Shown piece after piece: positions 1-64,000 of a stretch of 64,000 nucleotides of DNA. Below the pieces are notes generated by a model. It worked only from the letters and a program-made list of their open reading frames with translations, was not told where the DNA came from and did not search any database. Source of the DNA: Bacteroidota bacterium. Its GTDB lineage: Bacteria; Bacteroidota; Ignavibacteria; UBA10030; UBA6906. The stretch's first letter is position 1, and every line of letters begins with the position of its first letter. The DNA lies in assembly GCA_049670805.1 (NCBI GenBank), contig JBATTW010000385.1:18007-82006 (forward strand), in the 5' to 3' direction. The position numbers were made by a program, and so were the translations under genes.

Positions 1-55
1 CCGTTGAGAAGAGCTTCACCGCACGGAGGTCACCCAGAAGCTCTGCCAGGTGCAT
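1..55 (-). CDS. murE: UDP-N-acetylmuramoyl-tripeptide ligase MurE, N-terminal fragment only (gene runs off window start)
   Basis: Minus-strand reading from 55 gives ATG then MHLAELLGDLRAVKLFST. The ATG overlaps the ftsI TGA stop (TGATG). Position right after ftsI matches dcw-cluster order. Only 18 codons are visible. Confidence 0.35.
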   Translation of the reverse strand, partial: MHLAELLGDLRAVKLFST

Positions 56-2226
56 CACATCCGTACCAGCGAGAGGTTCTTTGGTTCGCACCGAACGACT
101 ATCCGTGTCCCCGATGCTACCTCCCGACCCGGCGACGGGCTTTGCGACACAACGACACCCGATCCCTTGACGCTTACATCCAGCCGGCAGACGGCAAGAC
201 TGTTGATCGCCCGACGCAGGGGTAGACCGCGCACATCCGGAATGATGGTGAACCCAGGACGCGACCGCGAATCATTCTCCTCGGTCTGGAGCCGCACATC
301 CGCACCCCTCTCCTGGACTGTCCCGGGGGCGGGATCCTGATCCCGCACCATCGAACCCTCTCCCTGGACTTCTACATCAAAGCCCTGAGAGGTCAGCAGT
401 TCTCGTGCGACATCTGTCTTCAGGCTCATTACATCCGGCACAGCGTGTCCTTTCCCGGTCTCTCCTGATGGATACCGGGCAAACCGCTGAGACATGGTAT
501 AAACTGTCCGAGCAATTTCTTTGAATATTGGAGCGCTGGCTGATCCACCGGTGTACGCTCCCGCGCGGGGTTTGTCGAGCATCACCAGACAAACAACCTT
601 CGGATCCTCCGCGGGAAAGAAGCCAACGAACGATGCTGTGTAGCTTCCACGCTCATACTTCCCGGAGACAAACTTCCTCGCAGTACCTGTCTTCCCTGCA
701 ACTCGAAGACCCTGGACTCTCGCAGATTTCCCGGTGCCTTGCTCAACAACGCCTTCCAGAAAACCGGTGAGCGTGTGCGCTGTCTCTGCTGATACGACCT
801 TCCGAATCTTCTGGGGGTGAACCTCGAAAATAACTTCGCCGCTCTGGTCAATGACCCGTTTGACAACAAACGGCCTCATCAATACACCGCCGTTTGCCAC
901 CGCGGCGTAGGCAGCCGCTATTTGAAGCGGTGTTACCCCCACTTCATAACCATACGCCATGCTGTTCAATGTTGTCCCCGACCATTCTGTCGGCTTCTTC
1001 AATTGGCCACCAACCTCACCGGGGAGCTCGATCCCCGTTTCGGAGCCGAACCCGAAGTTCCGAGCCATCGTGTACAGCCTCTCCGCACCCACCCGATCTG
1101 AAATCTTTGCCATCACGATGTTGCTCGAGAGTTCGATTGCCTCCCGGAACGAAATCATCCCGTAGGGGTGGATATCGTTTATCGTTCGCGGCTTCTCCCG
1201 GGGTAGACGGATAACGTACTCTCCCTGCTCTCCAGAGAACTTCTGCTCCGGTTTCACCAGCCCGTGTTCCAGAGCGGCCGCCGCCGTGACAAGTTTGAAG
1301 ACCGAGCCGGGTTCGAACATATCGGTTATGACCCTGTTCTTCGAGGGCTCGCCGAGGCTCCTCGACACCAGCGCGGGGTTTAGCGAAGGGAAGTTTGCCA
1401 GCGCGAGTACTTCCCCGGTCACGGGGTCCATCATAATGGCAAGACCTCTCTCCGCTTTTGTCCGCTCGACCCCTCTTTCAAGTTCCTCCTCGACAATGGA
1501 CTGGTACCCGATATCAATCGTCAAAACGACATCGTCCCCATCCGTGGGCTCCGTTCGCGGATAGTCCACCGAGGGCAGCCGCCGGCCTCGCACGTCCCGC
1601 TGCATGATGACGTGTCCATCCCTCCCCTTGAGGCGGTCATTTAGGAAAAGTTCTATTCCATCAAGGCCGTTGTTGTCAACGTCGGTGAATCCGATAATCT
1701 GACTCCCCAGCTGACCATAGTGGTAGAGGCGCTTTGGTTCCGTCATCTCAATGATACCTGCGAGCGACGACGCCTTAATGCGTTTGGAGTCCTCCGGGTG
1801 TACCCGTCGCTCAAGCCAGACAAACCGTCGGTCGGTCCCCGTGAGACGAGAGAGATACCACGACGATGCTTTGTTGAAGACAAACGCAAACCGACGCGCA
1901 ACATCCCCGGCGGCGGGTCCCACGTTTTTCGGGTCCGCACCGTACGACACCAACAACGTGTTGGAAACGAGGAGTTTGGTAGACCGATCATATATCTTAC
2001 CCCGCACAGCCGGGAGTACAACCACCGCCTCATGCTGACGGCGGGCAATCTCCTGATACCTGGACGCATCAACAACCTGAATTTGAACGAGCCGGGCAAC
2101 AACCCCGAGAAAAAAAAGAAGGAACAGCACTTTCACCACACCAGCCCGGCGCAAGAAGAGCCTGCGCCGCATCGCCGGCCCATTCTTCTTATTTCCCGCA
2201 CGGGGCTTTCTGTTTTCCTGTGTCAC
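55..2226 (-). CDS. ftsI: Peptidoglycan D,D-transpeptidase FtsI (class B PBP) with two C-terminal PASTA domains
   Basis: 723-aa ORF with N-terminal TM anchor, PBP dimerisation and transpeptidase regions, and two tandem ~65-aa PASTA-like repeats at the C-terminus. Lies between ftsL and murE. Confidence 0.9.
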   Translation of the reverse strand: MTQENRKPRAGNKKNGPAMRRRLFLRRAGVVKVLFLLFFLGVVARLVQIQVVDASRYQEIARRQHEAVVVLPAVRGKIYDRSTKLLVSNTLLVSYGADPKNVGPAAGDVARRFAFVFNKASSWYLSRLTGTDRRFVWLERRVHPEDSKRIKASSLAGIIEMTEPKRLYHYGQLGSQIIGFTDVDNNGLDGIELFLNDRLKGRDGHVIMQRDVRGRRLPSVDYPRTEPTDGDDVVLTIDIGYQSIVEEELERGVERTKAERGLAIMMDPVTGEVLALANFPSLNPALVSRSLGEPSKNRVITDMFEPGSVFKLVTAAAALEHGLVKPEQKFSGEQGEYVIRLPREKPRTINDIHPYGMISFREAIELSSNIVMAKISDRVGAERLYTMARNFGFGSETGIELPGEVGGQLKKPTEWSGTTLNSMAYGYEVGVTPLQIAAAYAAVANGGVLMRPFVVKRVIDQSGEVIFEVHPQKIRKVVSAETAHTLTGFLEGVVEQGTGKSARVQGLRVAGKTGTARKFVSGKYERGSYTASFVGFFPAEDPKVVCLVMLDKPRAGAYTGGSASAPIFKEIARTVYTMSQRFARYPSGETGKGHAVPDVMSLKTDVARELLTSQGFDVEVQGEGSMVRDQDPAPGTVQERGADVRLQTEENDSRSRPGFTIIPDVRGLPLRRAINSLAVCRLDVSVKGSGVVVSQSPSPGREVASGTRIVVRCEPKNLSLVRM

Positions 2227-2675
2227 TGTTGTTTCCGTCTGTTGCGAAGATCTTTCGCGAGTTCATGGTCAATACGAAAATACGTCGCCGGTTCTGCGGG
2301 GTGCTGCAGCTGCAGCTCCTTGGCGGCAAATGCACTGATGCGACCGCGGGATGATTTCTTGCTCACTTCAGCGCGCAACACACCGTTTGCATGGGTCAGC
2401 GAGTCATGCCGCACTTCCAACCGGTTGATATCATACGCCAGCCGGTTCACCACGATGATGTTGTTGACGTAGTACACAATGGCAACACCGGCAATAACAA
2501 GAGCGAGCAGGAGACTAAACGTAGACTTTCGTCTTCCGGTGACCTTTTTGTTCGCGCGGGGAAGAAACCCGCCGGTGGCAATGCGTGGGTCACCGCCGTA
2601 CACATACCGGTGTTCCCGGTATGGCTGACGATTCGGTCTGGTCAGCGTTTCCTGGTTCGGCTGTACATCCATCAA
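2223..2675 (-). CDS. ftsL: Cell division protein FtsL
   Basis: 150-aa single-TM coiled-coil protein between rsmH and ftsI. ATGA overlaps with both neighbours. Confidence 0.7.
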   Translation of the reverse strand: MMDVQPNQETLTRPNRQPYREHRYVYGGDPRIATGGFLPRANKKVTGRRKSTFSLLLALVIAGVAIVYYVNNIIVVNRLAYDINRLEVRHDSLTHANGVLRAEVSKKSSRGRISAFAAKELQLQHPAEPATYFRIDHELAKDLRNRRKQQ

Positions 2676-3628
2676 TAGTGGTCCCCGGGTACCCGAAGAC
2701 GTGTAGCTACCCGCATCTTGGCGCTACGCGCCCGTGGATTGCTCCGTATTTCCTCAGCGTCGGGAATGACGGGTTTCCGATGCAGAATCTGCAACGCGGG
2801 CAGCCGCTCCTCATCAGGCACATATACGTGAGGAGAGCGAACAACCCTTGCGGACTCCCTCTTCAAAAAGTTCTTGACTATCCTGTCCTCAAGCGAGTGG
2901 TAGGCAATGACAACCAGCCGCCCCCCGGGTTCGAGCTTTGCCATCGAGTCGAGGAGAACTCTAGAAAGGTTGGCAAGTTCCGCGTTCACCTCTATCCGCA
3001 GCGCCTGAAAGACGCGCGCCAAGGACTTTGTCAAAAACCGCCCACCGACAACTGAGGAAACCGCAGTACACAGCTCTCTACTCGTCAAGAGAGGTCTGCG
3101 CGCGATAATAGCCTTTGTAATCTTCCGGGAGTACCTCTCCTCACCGTACTCACGGATGATCCGCTCGAGAGCATCCTCCGCATATGCATTCACTACATCC
3201 CGGGCCGTCAGGTCTTGCCTGCGATCAAACCGCATGTCCAGCTGGCCGTCCGCCTGGAAGCTGAATCCTTTCTCAGGTCTGTCGATCTGGAACGATGACA
3301 CACCGAGATCGAGCAGTATGCCGCTGACAGCACCGATCCCACGTCCATCAAGCTCTGCGGCCAGGCAACTGGCGTTCGCGTGTACGAAGGAGACAGCCCC
3401 GCCGTATTCTCTCAGACGCTTACGTGCATGATCGATTGCGTCGTCATCCGCATCAAAACATATCAATCGACCCCGTGGAACCAACCGCCTGCAGATTGCC
3501 TCGGCGTGACCACCGCCGCCGACGGTTCCATCCACATAGATCCCGCCGAGATCGGTTAGCAGATAGTCTACCGTCTTTTCGCAGAGAACCGGTTCATGAA
3601 AAGACACAGCTCTCACTCTACAGGACAA
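2672..3628 (-). CDS. rsmH: 16S rRNA (cytosine1402-N4)-methyltransferase RsmH (MraW)
   Basis: 318 aa with SAM-binding GGGGH motif and the typical RsmH N-terminus (HEPVL). Sits in the dcw cluster after mraZ. Confidence 0.9.
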   Translation of the reverse strand: MSCRVRAVSFHEPVLCEKTVDYLLTDLGGIYVDGTVGGGGHAEAICRRLVPRGRLICFDADDDAIDHARKRLREYGGAVSFVHANASCLAAELDGRGIGAVSGILLDLGVSSFQIDRPEKGFSFQADGQLDMRFDRRQDLTARDVVNAYAEDALERIIREYGEERYSRKITKAIIARRPLLTSRELCTAVSSVVGGRFLTKSLARVFQALRIEVNAELANLSRVLLDSMAKLEPGGRLVVIAYHSLEDRIVKNFLKRESARVVRSPHVYVPDEERLPALQILHRKPVIPDAEEIRSNPRARSAKMRVATRLRVPGDHY

Positions 3629-3655
3629 TGACTGTGCACAGTGTGAACCACGAAG

Positions 3656-4099
3656 CTACTTTTGCAGAACTGTCTGTGCAACGTTTTCGTAGCTTTCAGA
3701 CTGCGACTTCTGGTACTCACGATAGACTGACGGATTCCATACCTCGATCCGCTCGAGGACCCCGAGGATCAGCACCTCGTTCTCGATTCCGGCAAATTGG
3801 AGAAGCTCTTTCGGTATGGTAATGCGGGACTGGCCGTCGAGCTGACACTCTGTGGCCCGCTCAAGCAGGGTGCGCATAAAGAATCTGTGTTTCGGATTGG
3901 TAGTGCTGAGCTCACGGATGGATTGCTCGAGTGTATTCCACTCGTCCAGAGGATAGACAAACAAGCACTGCTCGTAGCCTCTTGTGACAACAAACGTATC
4001 CTTTGCATCCAGCGAGACGTAGCGTCGCAGTCTGGCCGGTATGTTGATTCGACCCTTGTTGTCAACAGAGTATTCGTATGAACCCTTGAAGGAGGACAT
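3656..4099 (-). CDS. mraZ: Transcriptional regulator MraZ
   Basis: 147 aa with duplicated MraZ/UPF0040 halves and N-terminal MSSFKGSYEYSVDNKGRINIPARLR. First gene of the dcw cluster. Confidence 0.9.
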   Translation of the reverse strand: MSSFKGSYEYSVDNKGRINIPARLRRYVSLDAKDTFVVTRGYEQCLFVYPLDEWNTLEQSIRELSTTNPKHRFFMRTLLERATECQLDGQSRITIPKELLQFAGIENEVLILGVLERIEVWNPSVYREYQKSQSESYENVAQTVLQK

Positions 4100-52883: not shown

Positions 52884-53336
52884 ATGTTACAACGGGTTGT
52901 GGATTTTCTGAGGGCCGGTGCAGGGGAGCCTGCTGAGGCAGGCCGTCCCAATGATACGTATGACACTACGCTGGCTGTCTGCGCGCTCTTTATCGAGATG
53001 GCGGTTATCGACGGGGAATTCTCAGAGGAAGAACGTGCTCATATCATCTCGATCCTGGAGGATGAATACCAGCTCTCGGAAGATGATATTTCGCGTCTGC
53101 TGGAAGAGGCGAGTGCCGAGGTCCGATCCAGCACGGACTACTGGCAGTTCACCAACATGATCAATGAGAACTACACCCCCGAAGAAAAGGTCCGTATTAT
53201 CGAGCTGCTCTGGAAAATCATCTATGCGGACGGAACTGTCGAGAAGCACGAGGACTACCTCATCAGAAAACTTGCCAGGTTGCTTGGTGTCCCGCATGGG
53301 GAGCTCATTGCCACGAAACTCAGAATGCGACCATGA
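52884..53336 (+). CDS. TerB-family (tellurite-resistance TerB / DjlA-N-like) protein
   Basis: 150-aa all-helical acidic protein with the two D-G-x-x-x-x-E repeats (AVIDGEFSEEE; IIYADGTVEKHED) characteristic of the TerB fold. Confidence 0.6.
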   Translation: MLQRVVDFLRAGAGEPAEAGRPNDTYDTTLAVCALFIEMAVIDGEFSEEERAHIISILEDEYQLSEDDISRLLEEASAEVRSSTDYWQFTNMINENYTPEEKVRIIELLWKIIYADGTVEKHEDYLIRKLARLLGVPHGELIATKLRMRP

Positions 53337-53415
53337 TGCTTTGATTTCGCACCCGGTTGAGGGCGAACGACGCAGCGAGAATCTCTTGTTACATACGAAT
53401 CGGTGAAGGAGAGCA

Positions 53416-54402
53416 ATGAAGATTTCAAAAGGCCGTGCCGTAGTCTACTCGTTGCTTTTCTTTCTGGTCTTTCTGATGCCCCTTCAGGGGTGTACCCGGC
53501 AGAGTGGTCCCGAGAAGCTACAAATTGCCGGAATGGTGTTCCAGGAGGATCAGTTCTTCCGGTTGGTGATCTTCGGGATGCGGGATGCGGCAGAGAAGCG
53601 GGGAGTAGAGCTTTTGGAAGCGAACAGTGCAGGTAGACCGGACAAGGAGATCCAGCTCGTAAACACATACATTGCGCGAGGCGTGGACGCGATTGTGATT
53701 TCACCCATGAGCGCACGTGCATCCATCAGTGCGCTCCAGCGGGCCCACGACAGAGGTATAACCGTGGTCACTTACAACACCACGGTTGAGACCGATCTGC
53801 CCGTTTCGTATATCGAGAGCGACCAGTATGACCTTGGTGCTTCCACGGGTAAAGCTGCCCGGAGGTATATAGAGACCGCCCTGGGTGGTGAAGCCAACAT
53901 TGCGATTGCAGCCTTTCTCTCCCAGGCTCCCGAGCAGAGCATTCAGCGGACAAACGGCTTCAAGGACCAGGTGACCACACTGGAGGGTGTGAAGATCGTC
54001 GCCGAACAGGATGCATGGCTTGCGGCACAGGCCGTCAAGAAGATTGGTGATATCCTCACAGCGAACCCCGATCTGGATATTGTTTGGGCGGCAAACGAGG
54101 GAGGCACGGTTGGCGCAGTTATGGCGGTGAGGAACGCTGGCAAAGCGGGGAAGGTGGTTGTGTACGGGACCGACACCAGCGAACAGCTTGCCAGTTTTCT
54201 GCTCTCCGATGACGGGGTTCTTCAGGCGATCACAGGTCAGCAACCGTTTGAAATAGGGTCAATGGCGGTCGACGCCGCGGTTCGTGTTCTCCTGGGAGAA
54301 TCTGTGGAGAAAAGGGTCTCGCTACCGGGCGTTCTGCTCTCACGGGACCGGCCCGACGAAGTACAAGATTTCAAGCTGCGTCTTGCCGAATTGAGCAAAT
54401 AG
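53416..54402 (+). CDS. Sugar ABC transporter substrate-binding lipoprotein (type I PBP, RbsB-like)
   Basis: 328 aa with lipobox LQGCT and RbsB-like fold motifs (GVDAIVISP, VVTYNT). Confidence 0.8.
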   Translation: MKISKGRAVVYSLLFFLVFLMPLQGCTRQSGPEKLQIAGMVFQEDQFFRLVIFGMRDAAEKRGVELLEANSAGRPDKEIQLVNTYIARGVDAIVISPMSARASISALQRAHDRGITVVTYNTTVETDLPVSYIESDQYDLGASTGKAARRYIETALGGEANIAIAAFLSQAPEQSIQRTNGFKDQVTTLEGVKIVAEQDAWLAAQAVKKIGDILTANPDLDIVWAANEGGTVGAVMAVRNAGKAGKVVVYGTDTSEQLASFLLSDDGVLQAITGQQPFEIGSMAVDAAVRVLLGESVEKRVSLPGVLLSRDRPDEVQDFKLRLAELSK

Positions 54403-54404
54403 GT

Positions 54405-55898
54405 ATGCAACGTTCGAGCCTGGAAACCGTTTCTCTCTGCAAAGACTATCCTGGCACACGAGCCTTAGACGATGTTTCGATCCGGTTTGACGGTGGCCGG
54501 GTTCATGCCCTCGTAGGAAAGAACGGCGCGGGAAAAAGTACACTTGTAAAGATCTTTGCCGGGGCCATCCCACCCACATCCGGGAGCGTCGCGATCAATG
54601 GCGCTTCCGCGACCTTCTCTTCACCCCGAGATGCACTCCGCCAGGGTATCGTGGCGGTCTATCAGGAACTGAGCCTTGTTCCCGAACTCACCGTGGCTGA
54701 AAACATCCTGCTGGGCCGTATGCCGCATCGGTCCGGGCCGTGGAATTTTGCTATCGACCGGGAAGAGGCATACTCTGCGGCTCAGGCAGCTCTCTCTCGG
54801 CTGGGAGTGGACCTGGATGTGAAGAAGAAAGCCCGTACACTCGGACTCGCGCAGCAACAATTTGTGGAAATCGCCAAGGCGATGTCCTACAAACCGGCGG
54901 TGCTCATGCTGGATGAACCGACATCGGCTCTCTCGCACAAGGAAGCCGAGCACCTATTTGACATCATACGGACACTCGCATCCCAGGGCGTCGTGCTCCT
55001 CTACATTACACATAGACTTCAGGAGATCTACCGGATTGCTGACACGGTATCGGTGCTGCGGGACGGGAAGCTTGTGGGGAGCGTAAGCAAGGCGGATGTT
55101 ACGCCGGAGAATCTGGCCAAAATGATGTTTGGGGACGTAGTCAAAATCTCACGATCGGCAGAAGCACTCCCCGCCCTGGAGCCCCTGTTGAAAGTGGAAC
55201 ACCTCTCCCGGCATGCGGCGTTCAGGGATGTTAGCTTCACGTTGTACAAGGGTGAAGTGCTCGGGATCGCGGGCTTGCTCGGATCAGGCCGTACCGAACT
55301 GCTTCGATCCCTCTTTGGTGCCGACCCTCCTCAAAGGGGCCATCTGATGCTTGATGGTAAACGGATCCAGCCCGAAAACCCTGCAATGATGAAAAGCCTC
55401 GGGGTGGTCCTCACGCCGGAGAACCGAAAAGAGGAAGGTTTGATTCAGATCTTGAGTACCAGGGCAAACATCTGTTTGGCCAGCCTGCAACGCGTGGCAC
55501 GGGGAGGATTTACCACTCGAACACGAGAACGGGTTTGGGCAGGACCGCTGATGCAGACGGTCGGTCTTGTTGCTCGGGACATCGAGGCTCCTGTCTCCTC
55601 CCTGAGTGGGGGGAACCAGCAGAAGGTGGTGGTGGGTAAGTGGGTGGGTACAGAACCTCGTGTCATTCTGATGGACGAGCCGACCCGCGGGATCGATGTC
55701 CAGGCGAAGCGACAGATGTTCGAGATTATCTGGGCTTTGAGCAAGCGAGGAATTAGCTCTCTGGTTGTGTCCAGCGAGCTCGAAGAGCTGCTCGAGGTAT
55801 GTCATCGCATACTGATCATGAAGAAGGGACAAATTGCCTCGGACGTTCTTCCTTCAGAAACATCTCTGGAAAGACTCTTTAGCCTATGTCTCCAATGA
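54405..55898 (+). CDS. Sugar ABC transporter ATP-binding protein, CUT2 family (tandem ABC domains, RbsA-like)
   Basis: 497 aa with two Walker A sites (GKNGAGKST; second degenerate GLLGSGRTEL) and two LSGG signatures. Confidence 0.88.
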   Translation: MQRSSLETVSLCKDYPGTRALDDVSIRFDGGRVHALVGKNGAGKSTLVKIFAGAIPPTSGSVAINGASATFSSPRDALRQGIVAVYQELSLVPELTVAENILLGRMPHRSGPWNFAIDREEAYSAAQAALSRLGVDLDVKKKARTLGLAQQQFVEIAKAMSYKPAVLMLDEPTSALSHKEAEHLFDIIRTLASQGVVLLYITHRLQEIYRIADTVSVLRDGKLVGSVSKADVTPENLAKMMFGDVVKISRSAEALPALEPLLKVEHLSRHAAFRDVSFTLYKGEVLGIAGLLGSGRTELLRSLFGADPPQRGHLMLDGKRIQPENPAMMKSLGVVLTPENRKEEGLIQILSTRANICLASLQRVARGGFTTRTRERVWAGPLMQTVGLVARDIEAPVSSLSGGNQQKVVVGKWVGTEPRVILMDEPTRGIDVQAKRQMFEIIWALSKRGISSLVVSSELEELLEVCHRILIMKKGQIASDVLPSETSLERLFSLCLQ

Positions 55899-56857
55899 AG
55901 TTCTTGAGATCACATCTCGGATCTGTCGTCCTGGAAGCTGTTCTCCTCCTCATCTGTGTCATTCTGGCGATAAGCGCGCCCCGGTTTTTCACCACGGAGA
56001 ACCTCTTGAATGTTCTGCGCAATGTCTCGATGCAGGGACTCATTGCACTCGGGATGACCATGGTCATTATCTCCGGCGAGATTGATTTGAGCGTTGGCTC
56101 GGCCGTCGCGTTTGCCGGCTGCCTGACGGCCTTTTCCACCGGGTGGATGATGGGTCCCGCACTCGGTCTTCCGGCGGAGCTTGCGGTTCCTCTGGCGGTC
56201 ATGATTGCCCTTACGGCGGGTTTCCTCCTGGGCAGCTTCAGTGGGGTAATGCGAACGCGCTATCAGGTTCCGACATTCATTACGACGCTTGCGCTCATGA
56301 CCGGATTCTCCGGTGCCGCCGAGCTGATCACCGATGGATTTCCACTGACACCGTTCCCGGAGTGGTACAGCTTCATCGGCGGTGGATACCTCTTCGGAGT
56401 CCCTTTTCCCGCTCTCGTCTTCCTGGCCGCGTTCGGGATTTTCCAGGTGGTCATGAACCAGACCACGTTCGGGAGATCCGTCTACGCGATTGGCGGAAAT
56501 GCCGAAGCCGCCAGGCTGAGCGGAATAGAGGTCAAGAAGATAAAAACACTCGTTCTCGGCACCACGGGTGCGCTGGCGGCGTTGAGCGGTGTTATGGTCT
56601 CATCGGAAATCATGTCAGGAACCGCAACCACAGCCAAAGGATGGGAGTTGGATATTATTGCCGCGGTGATTATCGGTGGAACGAGTCTTATGGGAGGGGT
56701 TGGAAGGATCTGGGGGACGATGATCGGGGTGATCTTCCTTGGAGTCATCATCAACGGAATGACCCTTCTGAACATCAGCGAGTACTGGCAGCATGTCGTG
56801 CGCGGTGTGCTTATCCTGGCTGCTGTTTTGCTCAATCGGCTGCAAGAGAAGGTCTAG
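55886..56857 (+). CDS. Sugar ABC transporter permease (RbsC-like)
   Basis: 323 aa with 8-10 TM helices, overlapping the ATPase end by 13 nt. Confidence 0.85.
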   Translation: MSPMKFLRSHLGSVVLEAVLLLICVILAISAPRFFTTENLLNVLRNVSMQGLIALGMTMVIISGEIDLSVGSAVAFAGCLTAFSTGWMMGPALGLPAELAVPLAVMIALTAGFLLGSFSGVMRTRYQVPTFITTLALMTGFSGAAELITDGFPLTPFPEWYSFIGGGYLFGVPFPALVFLAAFGIFQVVMNQTTFGRSVYAIGGNAEAARLSGIEVKKIKTLVLGTTGALAALSGVMVSSEIMSGTATTAKGWELDIIAAVIIGGTSLMGGVGRIWGTMIGVIFLGVIINGMTLLNISEYWQHVVRGVLILAAVLLNRLQEKV

Positions 56858-62726: not shown

Positions 62727-62835
62727 AGAGTGGAAATTTGTGAAAAAATAGAAGATTTTGGGGAAAAGTCAAAGGCAGAGGGATGGGAGTGAATATATCC
62801 CGGTTTTGGGTGTATTGCAGGTGGACAGACTCTTG

Positions 62836-63363
62836 ATGGATACACGGGAACGAAGTACAGAGAGGGAATGGATATGCCGGAGTCAGCGTGGAGACAAGGA
62901 AGCATTTGGTCTCGTTGTGAAGAAGTACATGCGACAGGCATACTATGCCGCACTGGGGATTCTGGGATCACATGACGATGCGCTGGATGCGTCGCAGGAG
63001 GCATTCGTCAGAGCATTCCTCTCCATCGAGCGTTTTGACGCAAACAAGCAGTTCTACACCTGGTATTACCGGATACTCCGCAACCATTGTCTGAACGTCG
63101 TGAGAAACAAGCGCATTCGAGCAGTCTCCTTCTCTCAAATTTTTGACAAGAGCTTTGAAGCGGTTTCCAGCGATCCCTCATCTGAGGAGGTCATCCAGCG
63201 GAGGGAGCTGAAGAGAGCGGTGTGGGAAGGTCTCTGGAAACTCAAAGTCGATGATCGGGAGATCCTGGTCGCGAGGGATATTCTGGGGACACCGTATGCG
63301 ACACTGGCAGAGTTGTTAGAATGTCCCGTAGGTACAGTGATGTCGCGGTTGTATCTTGCGTGA
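62836..63363 (+). CDS. ECF-type RNA polymerase sigma-70 factor, apparently ending at an in-frame TGA 12 codons before the frame's natural stop
   Basis: Region 2 (AYYAALGILGSHDDALDASQEAFVRAF) and region 4 (TLAELLECPVGTVMSRLYLA) are present. The TGA at 63361 aligns with the conserved Arg of the region-4.2 terminus. Reading on gives RRLRAELEGVV then a TGA that overlaps the anti-sigma ATG (ATGA). Confidence 0.75.
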   Translation: MDTRERSTEREWICRSQRGDKEAFGLVVKKYMRQAYYAALGILGSHDDALDASQEAFVRAFLSIERFDANKQFYTWYYRILRNHCLNVVRNKRIRAVSFSQIFDKSFEAVSSDPSSEEVIQRRELKRAVWEGLWKLKVDDREILVARDILGTPYATLAELLECPVGTVMSRLYLA

Positions 63364-63395
63364 CGGCGGCTCCGGGCGGAGCTCGAGGGGGTAGT

Positions 63396-63851
63396 ATGAG
63401 TGTGAATCTGTCCGAGCGCGAACTGGTCCTGGTGAATAAGGCAATCGACGAGATGTTGTCGCGAGAGGAAGCAGCGGAGCTCCAGCAGTTCTTTGCAATG
63501 CGACCGGAAGTACGGCTCGAGTACGAGTCCATGAAATCTGTGAAGGAGGCGACAATGGAACTGAAATTCAGACAACCACCCGAGGAGACATGGGACCGCT
63601 ACTGGGCCGGGGTATACTCCCGGCTCGAACGAGGTCTTGCGTGGCTCCTGATCAGCATCGGCGCCGCCGTGGTGCTGGCGATAGCCGGGTACGGTGCCGT
63701 GATGAAGCTACTGGAGGACACCTCGACACCGCTTGCGGTGAAGCTGGGCGTGGGGGCCCTTCTGCTGGGCGGTGCGGTTCTGCTCGTGTCCGTTAGGCGT
63801 GAAAAGTTAGTCATGAGAAGGACAGACAAATACAAAGAGGTTATCCGATGA
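63396..63851 (+). CDS. Putative anti-sigma factor (cytoplasmic N-domain plus TM segments)
   Basis: 151 aa from the ATG at 63396. N-terminal helical domain MSVNLSERELVLVNKAIDEML, then two hydrophobic TM stretches. Positioned immediately 3' of the ECF sigma gene. Confidence 0.55.
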   Translation: MSVNLSERELVLVNKAIDEMLSREEAAELQQFFAMRPEVRLEYESMKSVKEATMELKFRQPPEETWDRYWAGVYSRLERGLAWLLISIGAAVVLAIAGYGAVMKLLEDTSTPLAVKLGVGALLLGGAVLLVSVRREKLVMRRTDKYKEVIR

Positions 63852-64000
63852 TTCTCTCAACGACACAGGCGGTTGCCGGAAAGACTGTTGTGCGAACCAT
63901 CGGTGTGGTCAAGGGTAATACCATTAGGGCCCGTCACATCGGGAAAGACATCACTGCTCTTTTGAAAAACGTCTTTGGCGGTGAGATCGAAGAGTACACG
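63848..64000 (+). CDS. YbjQ/UPF0145-family (heavy-metal-binding-like) protein, N-terminal part (runs off window end)
   Basis: ATG at 63848 overlaps the anti-sigma TGA (ATGA). MILSTTQAVAGKTVVRTIGVVKGNTIRARHIGKDITALLKNVFGGEIEEY matches the UPF0145 N-terminus. Not in the ORF track because no stop lies within the window. Confidence 0.6.
   Translation, partial: MILSTTQAVAGKTVVRTIGVVKGNTIRARHIGKDITALLKNVFGGEIEEYT

Follow-up and report, generated by a model that had tools for sequence, protein, structure and literature searches.

A lineage-specific premature TGA codon in an ECF sigma factor gene of an uncultured Bacteroidota bacterium

Introduction

The closest described counterparts of the locus are the rpoE–rseA and sigW–rsiW operons (ECF group IV), whose two-domain sigma factor architecture, sigma-2 plus sigma-4, is likewise found here. 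As in these operons, a gene for a membrane protein lies downstream of the sigma factor gene, here with a 4-base overlap onto the ancestral sigma stop at every orthologous locus, and a conserved block upstream of the sigma gene resembles an ECF promoter. Unlike its counterparts, the putative anti-sigma factor is without a Pfam family and would be almost without an extracytoplasmic part, and the sigma gene of the lineage studied is shortened by a nonsense codon. Where sigma-E carries the base-contacting residue R176, moreover, the family considered here has His or Tyr. Binding to the -35 element is needed by ECF sigma factors.

Alternative sigma factors are known to carry nonsense or other loss-of-function alleles in nature, examples being the rpoS amber allele of E. 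coli K-12 and algU/mucA mutations in Pseudomonas aeruginosa isolates. Like these, the allele described here is a one-base lesion in a stress sigma regulator that is not essential, and it has become fixed in a clonal lineage whose close relatives have the gene intact; its stop, however, is placed just 12 codons before the end, within the recognition helix.

Programmed recoding of UGA, as in bacterial selenocysteine and read-through systems, is a further point of comparison, in that an in-frame UGA is followed here by an open homologous frame and stands in a UGA-C context, which is regarded as leaky. In contrast to programmed recoding, the UGA is unconserved in other lineages and accompanied by neither a SECIS-like nor another detectable RNA element, and in contrast to selenocysteine systems the homologous residue is Arg, not Cys.

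Sigma factor gene and family assignment

In the 64,000-nucleotide stretch of DNA that was analyzed (the window), an ATG at 62836 opens an ECF sigma factor ORF of 175 amino acids (62836..63363, plus strand), which ends ...GTVMSRLYLA-TGA with the stop at 63361–63363. Beyond this TGA, the same frame contains 11 sense codons (RRLRAELEGVV) and then a second TGA at 63397–63399, which overlaps the downstream ATG (63396–63398) in an ATGA junction. The initial annotation, made from the letters of the window, had described both the stop at 63361 and the coupling of the later one to the anti-sigma start, and its description agrees base for base with sequence and translation. An open stretch of 11 codons is not in itself improbable by chance; it is recognized as the orphaned C-terminus of the sigma gene because of homology, the last 11 codons and the ancestral TGA stop (63364..63399, plus strand) being identical in 36/36 nt to the nearest full-length orthologue (L081). 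Termination at 63397–63399 would give a tail of 12 residues, the length most often seen in the family (62 of 119 homologues). Among all single-base changes in the inferred ancestral ORF, 4.6% create a stop.

The domain content was assessed with Pfam and NCBIfam profiles. Sigma70_r2 (PF04542) was matched at E = 3.9e-15 with 55.8 bits against a cutoff of 24, so that sigma-2 (regions 2.1–2.4) is present, and Sigma70_r4_2 (PF08281) was covered by the encoded ORF at positions 9–50 of 54 and by the read-through form at positions 9–54. The encoded product, ending after residue 175, therefore has an incomplete sigma-4 (region 4.2 helix-turn-helix). These two are the only Pfam domains in the 187 amino acids of the read-through form, regions 1.1 and 3 being absent. 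The read-through form scored 91.8 bits against a cutoff of 42.9 for TIGR02937 (sigma70-ECF) and stayed below all NCBIfam equivalog cutoffs, including those of RpoE and SigW, and is therefore orthologous to neither. Among proteins of solved structure, AlgU/sigma-H, E. coli sigma-E and B. subtilis SigW come closest. By descent, the gene belongs to the ECF sigma factors and has a putative membrane anti-sigma partner; it is related but not orthologous to RpoE, AlgU and SigW, and its product is incomplete.

Ancestral state of codon 176

Relatives of the sigma factor were collected by a search of approximately 5.8 billion protein clusters, which returned 1062 sequences; the 119 homologues counted here and elsewhere are those with the GTVxSRL motif among the best 120 of these. 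The closest relatives (96, 92, 84% protein identity, and so on) are 187 amino acids long, exactly the read-through length. Arg, which the initial annotation had named as the residue normally found where the TGA falls, occupies the TGA column in 27/27 aligned relatives and the TGA codon in 119/119 motif-bearing homologues. From the Arg equivalent to R176 to the C-terminus, the tail comprises at least 10 residues in every one of the 119 (mode 12). Orthologues ending at the same position, which would mark the short form as ancestral, were likewise sought as the initial annotation had advised; none does so, the shortest tail being 10 residues, and the short form is not ancestral.

At the DNA level, codon 176 is CGA in L081 (97.0% identity over 4165 bp), L172 (97.1%) and L082 (88%) and CGG in L083 (80%), in agreement with the earlier proposal that the stop is one transition away from CGA. 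Other, more distant orthologues have CGG, CGC, AGG or CGA, one lineage has GGG (Gly), and a stop was found at codon 176 in none. A metagenome scan guided by the protein contributed few further close orthologues, and none with a stop. The best genome-contig match to the locus was a 64%-identical Ignavibacteriales MAG. Syntenic loci consist of an M1 peptidase gene, the gene for a 187-aa sigma factor, a gene for a 151-aa protein overlapping it by 4 bases, and a YbjQ gene.

As a separate observation, the Gly codon at the R176-equivalent position belongs to the lineage of the Ignavibacteria MAG M_DeepCast_400m_m2_062 (L003, 3001–3546; L094, 1501–2046), in which this residue is tolerated; L095, near-identical to that lineage, has CGG at the position.

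When L082 and L083 serve as outgroups, R176* falls as a derived change on the branch of the window, where the premature TGA (63361..63363, plus strand) goes back to CGA (Arg176; CGA or CGG in relatives) by a C-to-T transition at 63361. The same branch has acquired S8T, E105K, H174L and three or four synonymous changes in the sigma gene. The Leu174 codon (CTT, 63355..63357, plus strand) is derived from CAT (His), and relatives have CAT or CAC. A single event or relaxed constraint behind H174L and R176*, which are 5 nt apart, was considered and rejected, as the proximity is not significant (8 substitutions in 564 nt, P = 0.40). Position 174 varies within the family (Y/H/N/S/T, and L in one of 119), so that little weight attaches to H174L.

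Only two alleles are present in the 90%-identity cluster, Leu174/TGA and His174/CGA, the latter from a strain about 3% diverged, and intermediates are absent. A degenerate pattern covering the four Leu/His and TGA/CGA combinations had no match in JGI metagenome contigs; this look-up is uninformative, as the L081-type allele was missed too and its sample is therefore absent from that collection.

Occurrence of the TGA allele in separate assemblies

By exact-sequence look-up, the 175-aa product was found to be called on at least 10 contigs, and a 176-aa version of the TGA allele with a TTG start on 3 further contigs. Nine contigs with the TGA allele were compared as DNA, originating from seven SRA runs (SRR28062311, 319, 438, 506, 697, 730 and 874) and two NCBI MAG assemblies (GCA_049672025.1 and GCA_049644725.1). 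All nine carry the TGA together with CTT two codons upstream, and all are 100.000% identical to the window across the full overlap, which extends up to 4165 bp. A window-like haplotype with CGA was not found among approximately 15 billion proteins. At the level of assembled contigs, the base is reproducible in independent data. The look-up of an exact product in independent assemblies can in this way separate an in-frame stop from an assembly error without recourse to reads.

The accessions of the seven runs are near-consecutive, so that they represent independent libraries, not necessarily independent populations, and may derive from one study or site; taken with the zero diversity of the contigs, they point to one clonal lineage and probably one study. 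A literature search by SRR and GCA accessions returned no paper. In NCBI, four accessions exist for the 175-aa protein, which is entered as a sigma-70 family factor from 'Bacteroidota bacterium', the name also given to the MAGs; the nearest named relatives are Ignavibacteriales.

The mutation is real, derived and confined to one lineage. With an in-frame stop where homologues have a sense codon, homology continuing beyond it, Arg in 119/119 homologues, CGA in the closest relatives and orthologues of 187 amino acids, the locus very probably represents a genuine, recent, lineage-specific nonsense mutation from CGA to TGA in an ECF sigma factor gene, the reading to which the initial annotation had given the lead.

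Consequences for region 4.2 and for the fate of the allele

The truncation was placed on solved structures by alignment. The TGA codon aligns to R178 of E. coli sigma-E, and Leu174 aligns to its base-contacting R176. Contacts of sigma-E4 and of sigma-W4 with -35 DNA involve T169, R171, S172, R173, F175 and R176 (PMC1540707; PMC6713349), and R178 is not mentioned in the sigma-E/-35 paper of Lane & Darst (PMC1540707). The positions equivalent to all these contacts lie upstream of the stop and are kept in the 175-aa form, for which reason residual DNA binding is possible. A literature search for an rpoE R178 allele with partial loss of function found none, and this was not used as evidence.

In the structure that AlphaFold predicts for the full-length orthologue P0001 (96% identical), the last helix runs continuously from residue 165 to 183 at pLDDT above 90. 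Of its 19 residues, the truncated form keeps 11 and loses 8, among them the invariant R176 and the near-invariant L179, together with the 4-residue tail. A break of the helix at 175–177, seen when the window's sequence was modeled with X at residue 176, was discarded as an effect of the X, since it is absent from the model of P0001. On the basis of the model, the recognition helix would be destabilized and -35 binding lost or strongly reduced. We consider it probable, from sequence and model together, that the 175-aa sigma factor is non-functional or strongly hypomorphic at -35-dependent promoters.

The most durable alternative is that the truncated sigma factor still works, or that its attenuation or loss was selected, the allele being neutral or adaptive. 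In its favor, every known base-contact equivalent is retained, and the TGA allele is the only one recovered for the strain across the seven runs and is evidently not strongly deleterious in that habitat. No nonsynonymous excess is seen in the operon either: measured against L081, the sigma gene has a dN/dS of 0.30, the anti-sigma gene one of 0.28 and the M1 peptidase gene one of 0.36, and the downstream anti-sigma gene has 2 nonsynonymous and 4 synonymous changes on the window's branch. These values, however, equally suit a recent lesion, since the sigma gene matches its neighbors and has no detectable decay, and zero diversity among the TGA contigs means that selection has had no time to leave a signature either way. 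The same data are thus compatible with a recent event and cannot show that the allele is maintained by selection. Set against a working product are the invariance of R176, the tail of at least 10 residues in all 119 homologues, the near-invariance of L179 and the loss of 8/19 recognition-helix residues, so that we regard this alternative as unlikely.

A further reading, in which the allele is kept as a hypomorph, appears very unlikely. Leakage at UGA-C, probably with insertion of Trp, would here supply a little full-length sigma factor, while the 175-aa bulk, unable to bind the -35 element, would titrate anti-sigma factor or core RNA polymerase; ATGA coupling would be restored only on read-through ribosomes. 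If this were true, a single point mutation would have retuned the set-point of an ECF switch.

Genetic code and recoding of the UGA

That UGA is recoded by a program, whether through selenocysteine, a suppressor tRNA, A-to-I editing to UGG or stimulated read-through, so as to yield full-length sigma factor, had been ranked last by the initial annotation, and it gains no support here. Its starting point is the base at +4 of the premature TGA, which is C. Poole et al. (1995) reportedly found UGA-C to be the weakest of the E. coli termination signals. In a eukaryotic reporter system, UGA_C was a weaker terminator than UGA_U (PMC9841425). Some spontaneous read-through is on this account likely, and with it the full length and the ATGA coupling would both be regained; low-level read-through of the premature UGA is possible. 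Yet TGA-C is also used at 4/21 genuine TGA-terminated ORFs in the window and is therefore not avoided there.

For a programmed signal, the stop and its extension should be conserved across lineages, whereas the stop was found in one clonal lineage only, with a sense codon in every other orthologue; a stop so restricted at a codon that is otherwise Arg marks a lesion rather than a programmed signal. Between 62600 and 64000 neither an Rfam match at E ≤ 10 nor a SECIS element was obtained, and the RNA fold between the stop and the next start is no better than that of shuffled sequence (z = +0.9). L081, which carries CGA, shares the downstream sequence, and no stimulatory element has therefore evolved together with the stop. 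The homologous residue is Arg and never Cys or Sec, which speaks against a selenoprotein, and no tRNA was found in the window. A-to-I editing of UGA to UGG was rejected on its motif: the TadA editing motif is UACG, while the local sequence is GACG within a stem of only 3 bp. Taken together, programmed recoding is highly improbable.

A change of the genetic code as a whole had already been discounted in the initial annotation, and the window bears this out. TGA is the commonest stop of its long ORFs (27 of 57, with 20 TAG and 10 TAA) and terminates RsmH, whose Pfam coverage reaches from 3 to 308 of 309; the family-typical C-terminus of the sigma factor itself is also set by TGA, and translation tables 4 and 25 do not apply. 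Part of the argument first given for this needs correction. The TGA of rsmH does overlap the ftsL start, and that of ftsL the PBP start, so that TGA acts as a stop at both junctions as claimed, but on the minus strand these read TTGATG (2670–2675) and GTGA (2223–2226), not ATGA.

An assembly or sequencing error with C as the true base at 63361, which the initial annotation had offered as its second reading and for which only the general prior of single-base errors in metagenome assemblies speaks, is effectively excluded, since the same TGA, with its CTT, recurs on nine contigs assembled separately (seven SRA runs and two MAG assemblies) with no further difference from the window in up to 4.2 kb and no CGA-bearing counterpart.

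Under the preferred reading, a nonsense mutation, a C-to-T transition turned Arg176 (CGA) into TGA in one clonal lineage of an uncultured bacterium. Translation now ends 12 codons early, sparing sigma-2 and most of sigma-4, while the -35 recognition helix is deprived of the final 8 of its 19 residues, R176 and L179 among them, and the 4-residue tail is gone as well. This is an ordinary recent nonsense allele of a kind commonly seen in non-essential regulators, and its significance beyond annotation is small. NCBI annotates the product as an ordinary 175-aa sigma factor; a more accurate entry would describe an ECF sigma factor of 187 aa in an allele with a truncated C-terminus. Should the strain be cultured, it would offer a natural mutant for study of the ECF regulon beside a 97%-identical wild-type relative.

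Operon and genomic neighborhood

Upstream of the sigma gene, a TGAATA-N16-GTAT block (62790..62815, plus strand) ends 20 nt before the start codon. Its conservation extends to L081, L082 and L083 and, for the greater part of the block, to the 64%-identical L001, and it occurs once in the window against 0.09 expected occurrences. From its conservation and rarity, the block is a putative ECF-type autoregulated promoter of the operon. As it resembles ECF promoters, the operon may be autoregulated, a dead sigma factor then leaving basal expression; if the block is the sigma factor's own promoter, the operon would lose positive autoregulation.

The downstream gene (63396..63851, plus strand) is intact and encodes a putative membrane anti-sigma factor of 151 amino acids. 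At all orthologous loci the gene has this length and overlaps the sigma stop by 4 bases. Its sole family match is a weak one, 26 bits where the cutoff is 225, to NF010501 'putative anti-sigmaE protein'. In the translation, which belongs to no Pfam family, two hydrophobic segments with a loop of about 8 residues between them were seen by eye; given so short a loop, the protein would be almost without an extracytoplasmic sensing domain. A Shine–Dalgarno-like run, GAGGGGG (63385..63391, plus strand), lies 5–11 nt before the anti-sigma ATG and would make independent initiation possible. Between the premature stop and this ATG there are now 32 nt, where ribosomes formerly terminated on the ATG itself. 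It is plausible that the premature stop uncouples anti-sigma translation: termination–reinitiation coupling would be weakened, and initiation would come to depend on the gene's own GAGGGGG.

Gene calls differ at this point. On some truncated-sigma contigs (window 63321–63851, plus strand; L087; L089), the downstream gene is called from an ATG at 63321 with 176 amino acids, while in full-length relatives it is called from the ATGA-coupled start with 151. The extension from 63321, which overlaps the 3' end of the sigma gene, looks like a gene-caller artifact provoked by the premature stop.

The anti-sigma stop in turn overlaps, as ATGA, the start of a YbjQ_1-family gene (63848..64000, plus strand; PF01906, E = 6.6e-14), which runs off the window and encodes 107–108 amino acids in orthologous loci. 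About 2.5 kb past the end of the window, on the opposite strand, a second ECF sigma factor of 182 amino acids is encoded (L086, 5881–6429, minus strand); the lineage with the TGA has this gene intact, and it is also conserved in L083 and L084. Elsewhere in the window, positions 55–4099 (minus strand) hold the start of a dcw cluster with mraZ, rsmH, an ftsL-like gene and a PBP gene with PASTA domains, and at 52884–56857 (plus strand) a 150-aa ORF is followed by what appears by eye from the translations to be a sugar ABC transporter, made up of a periplasmic binding protein, a double ATPase and a permease.
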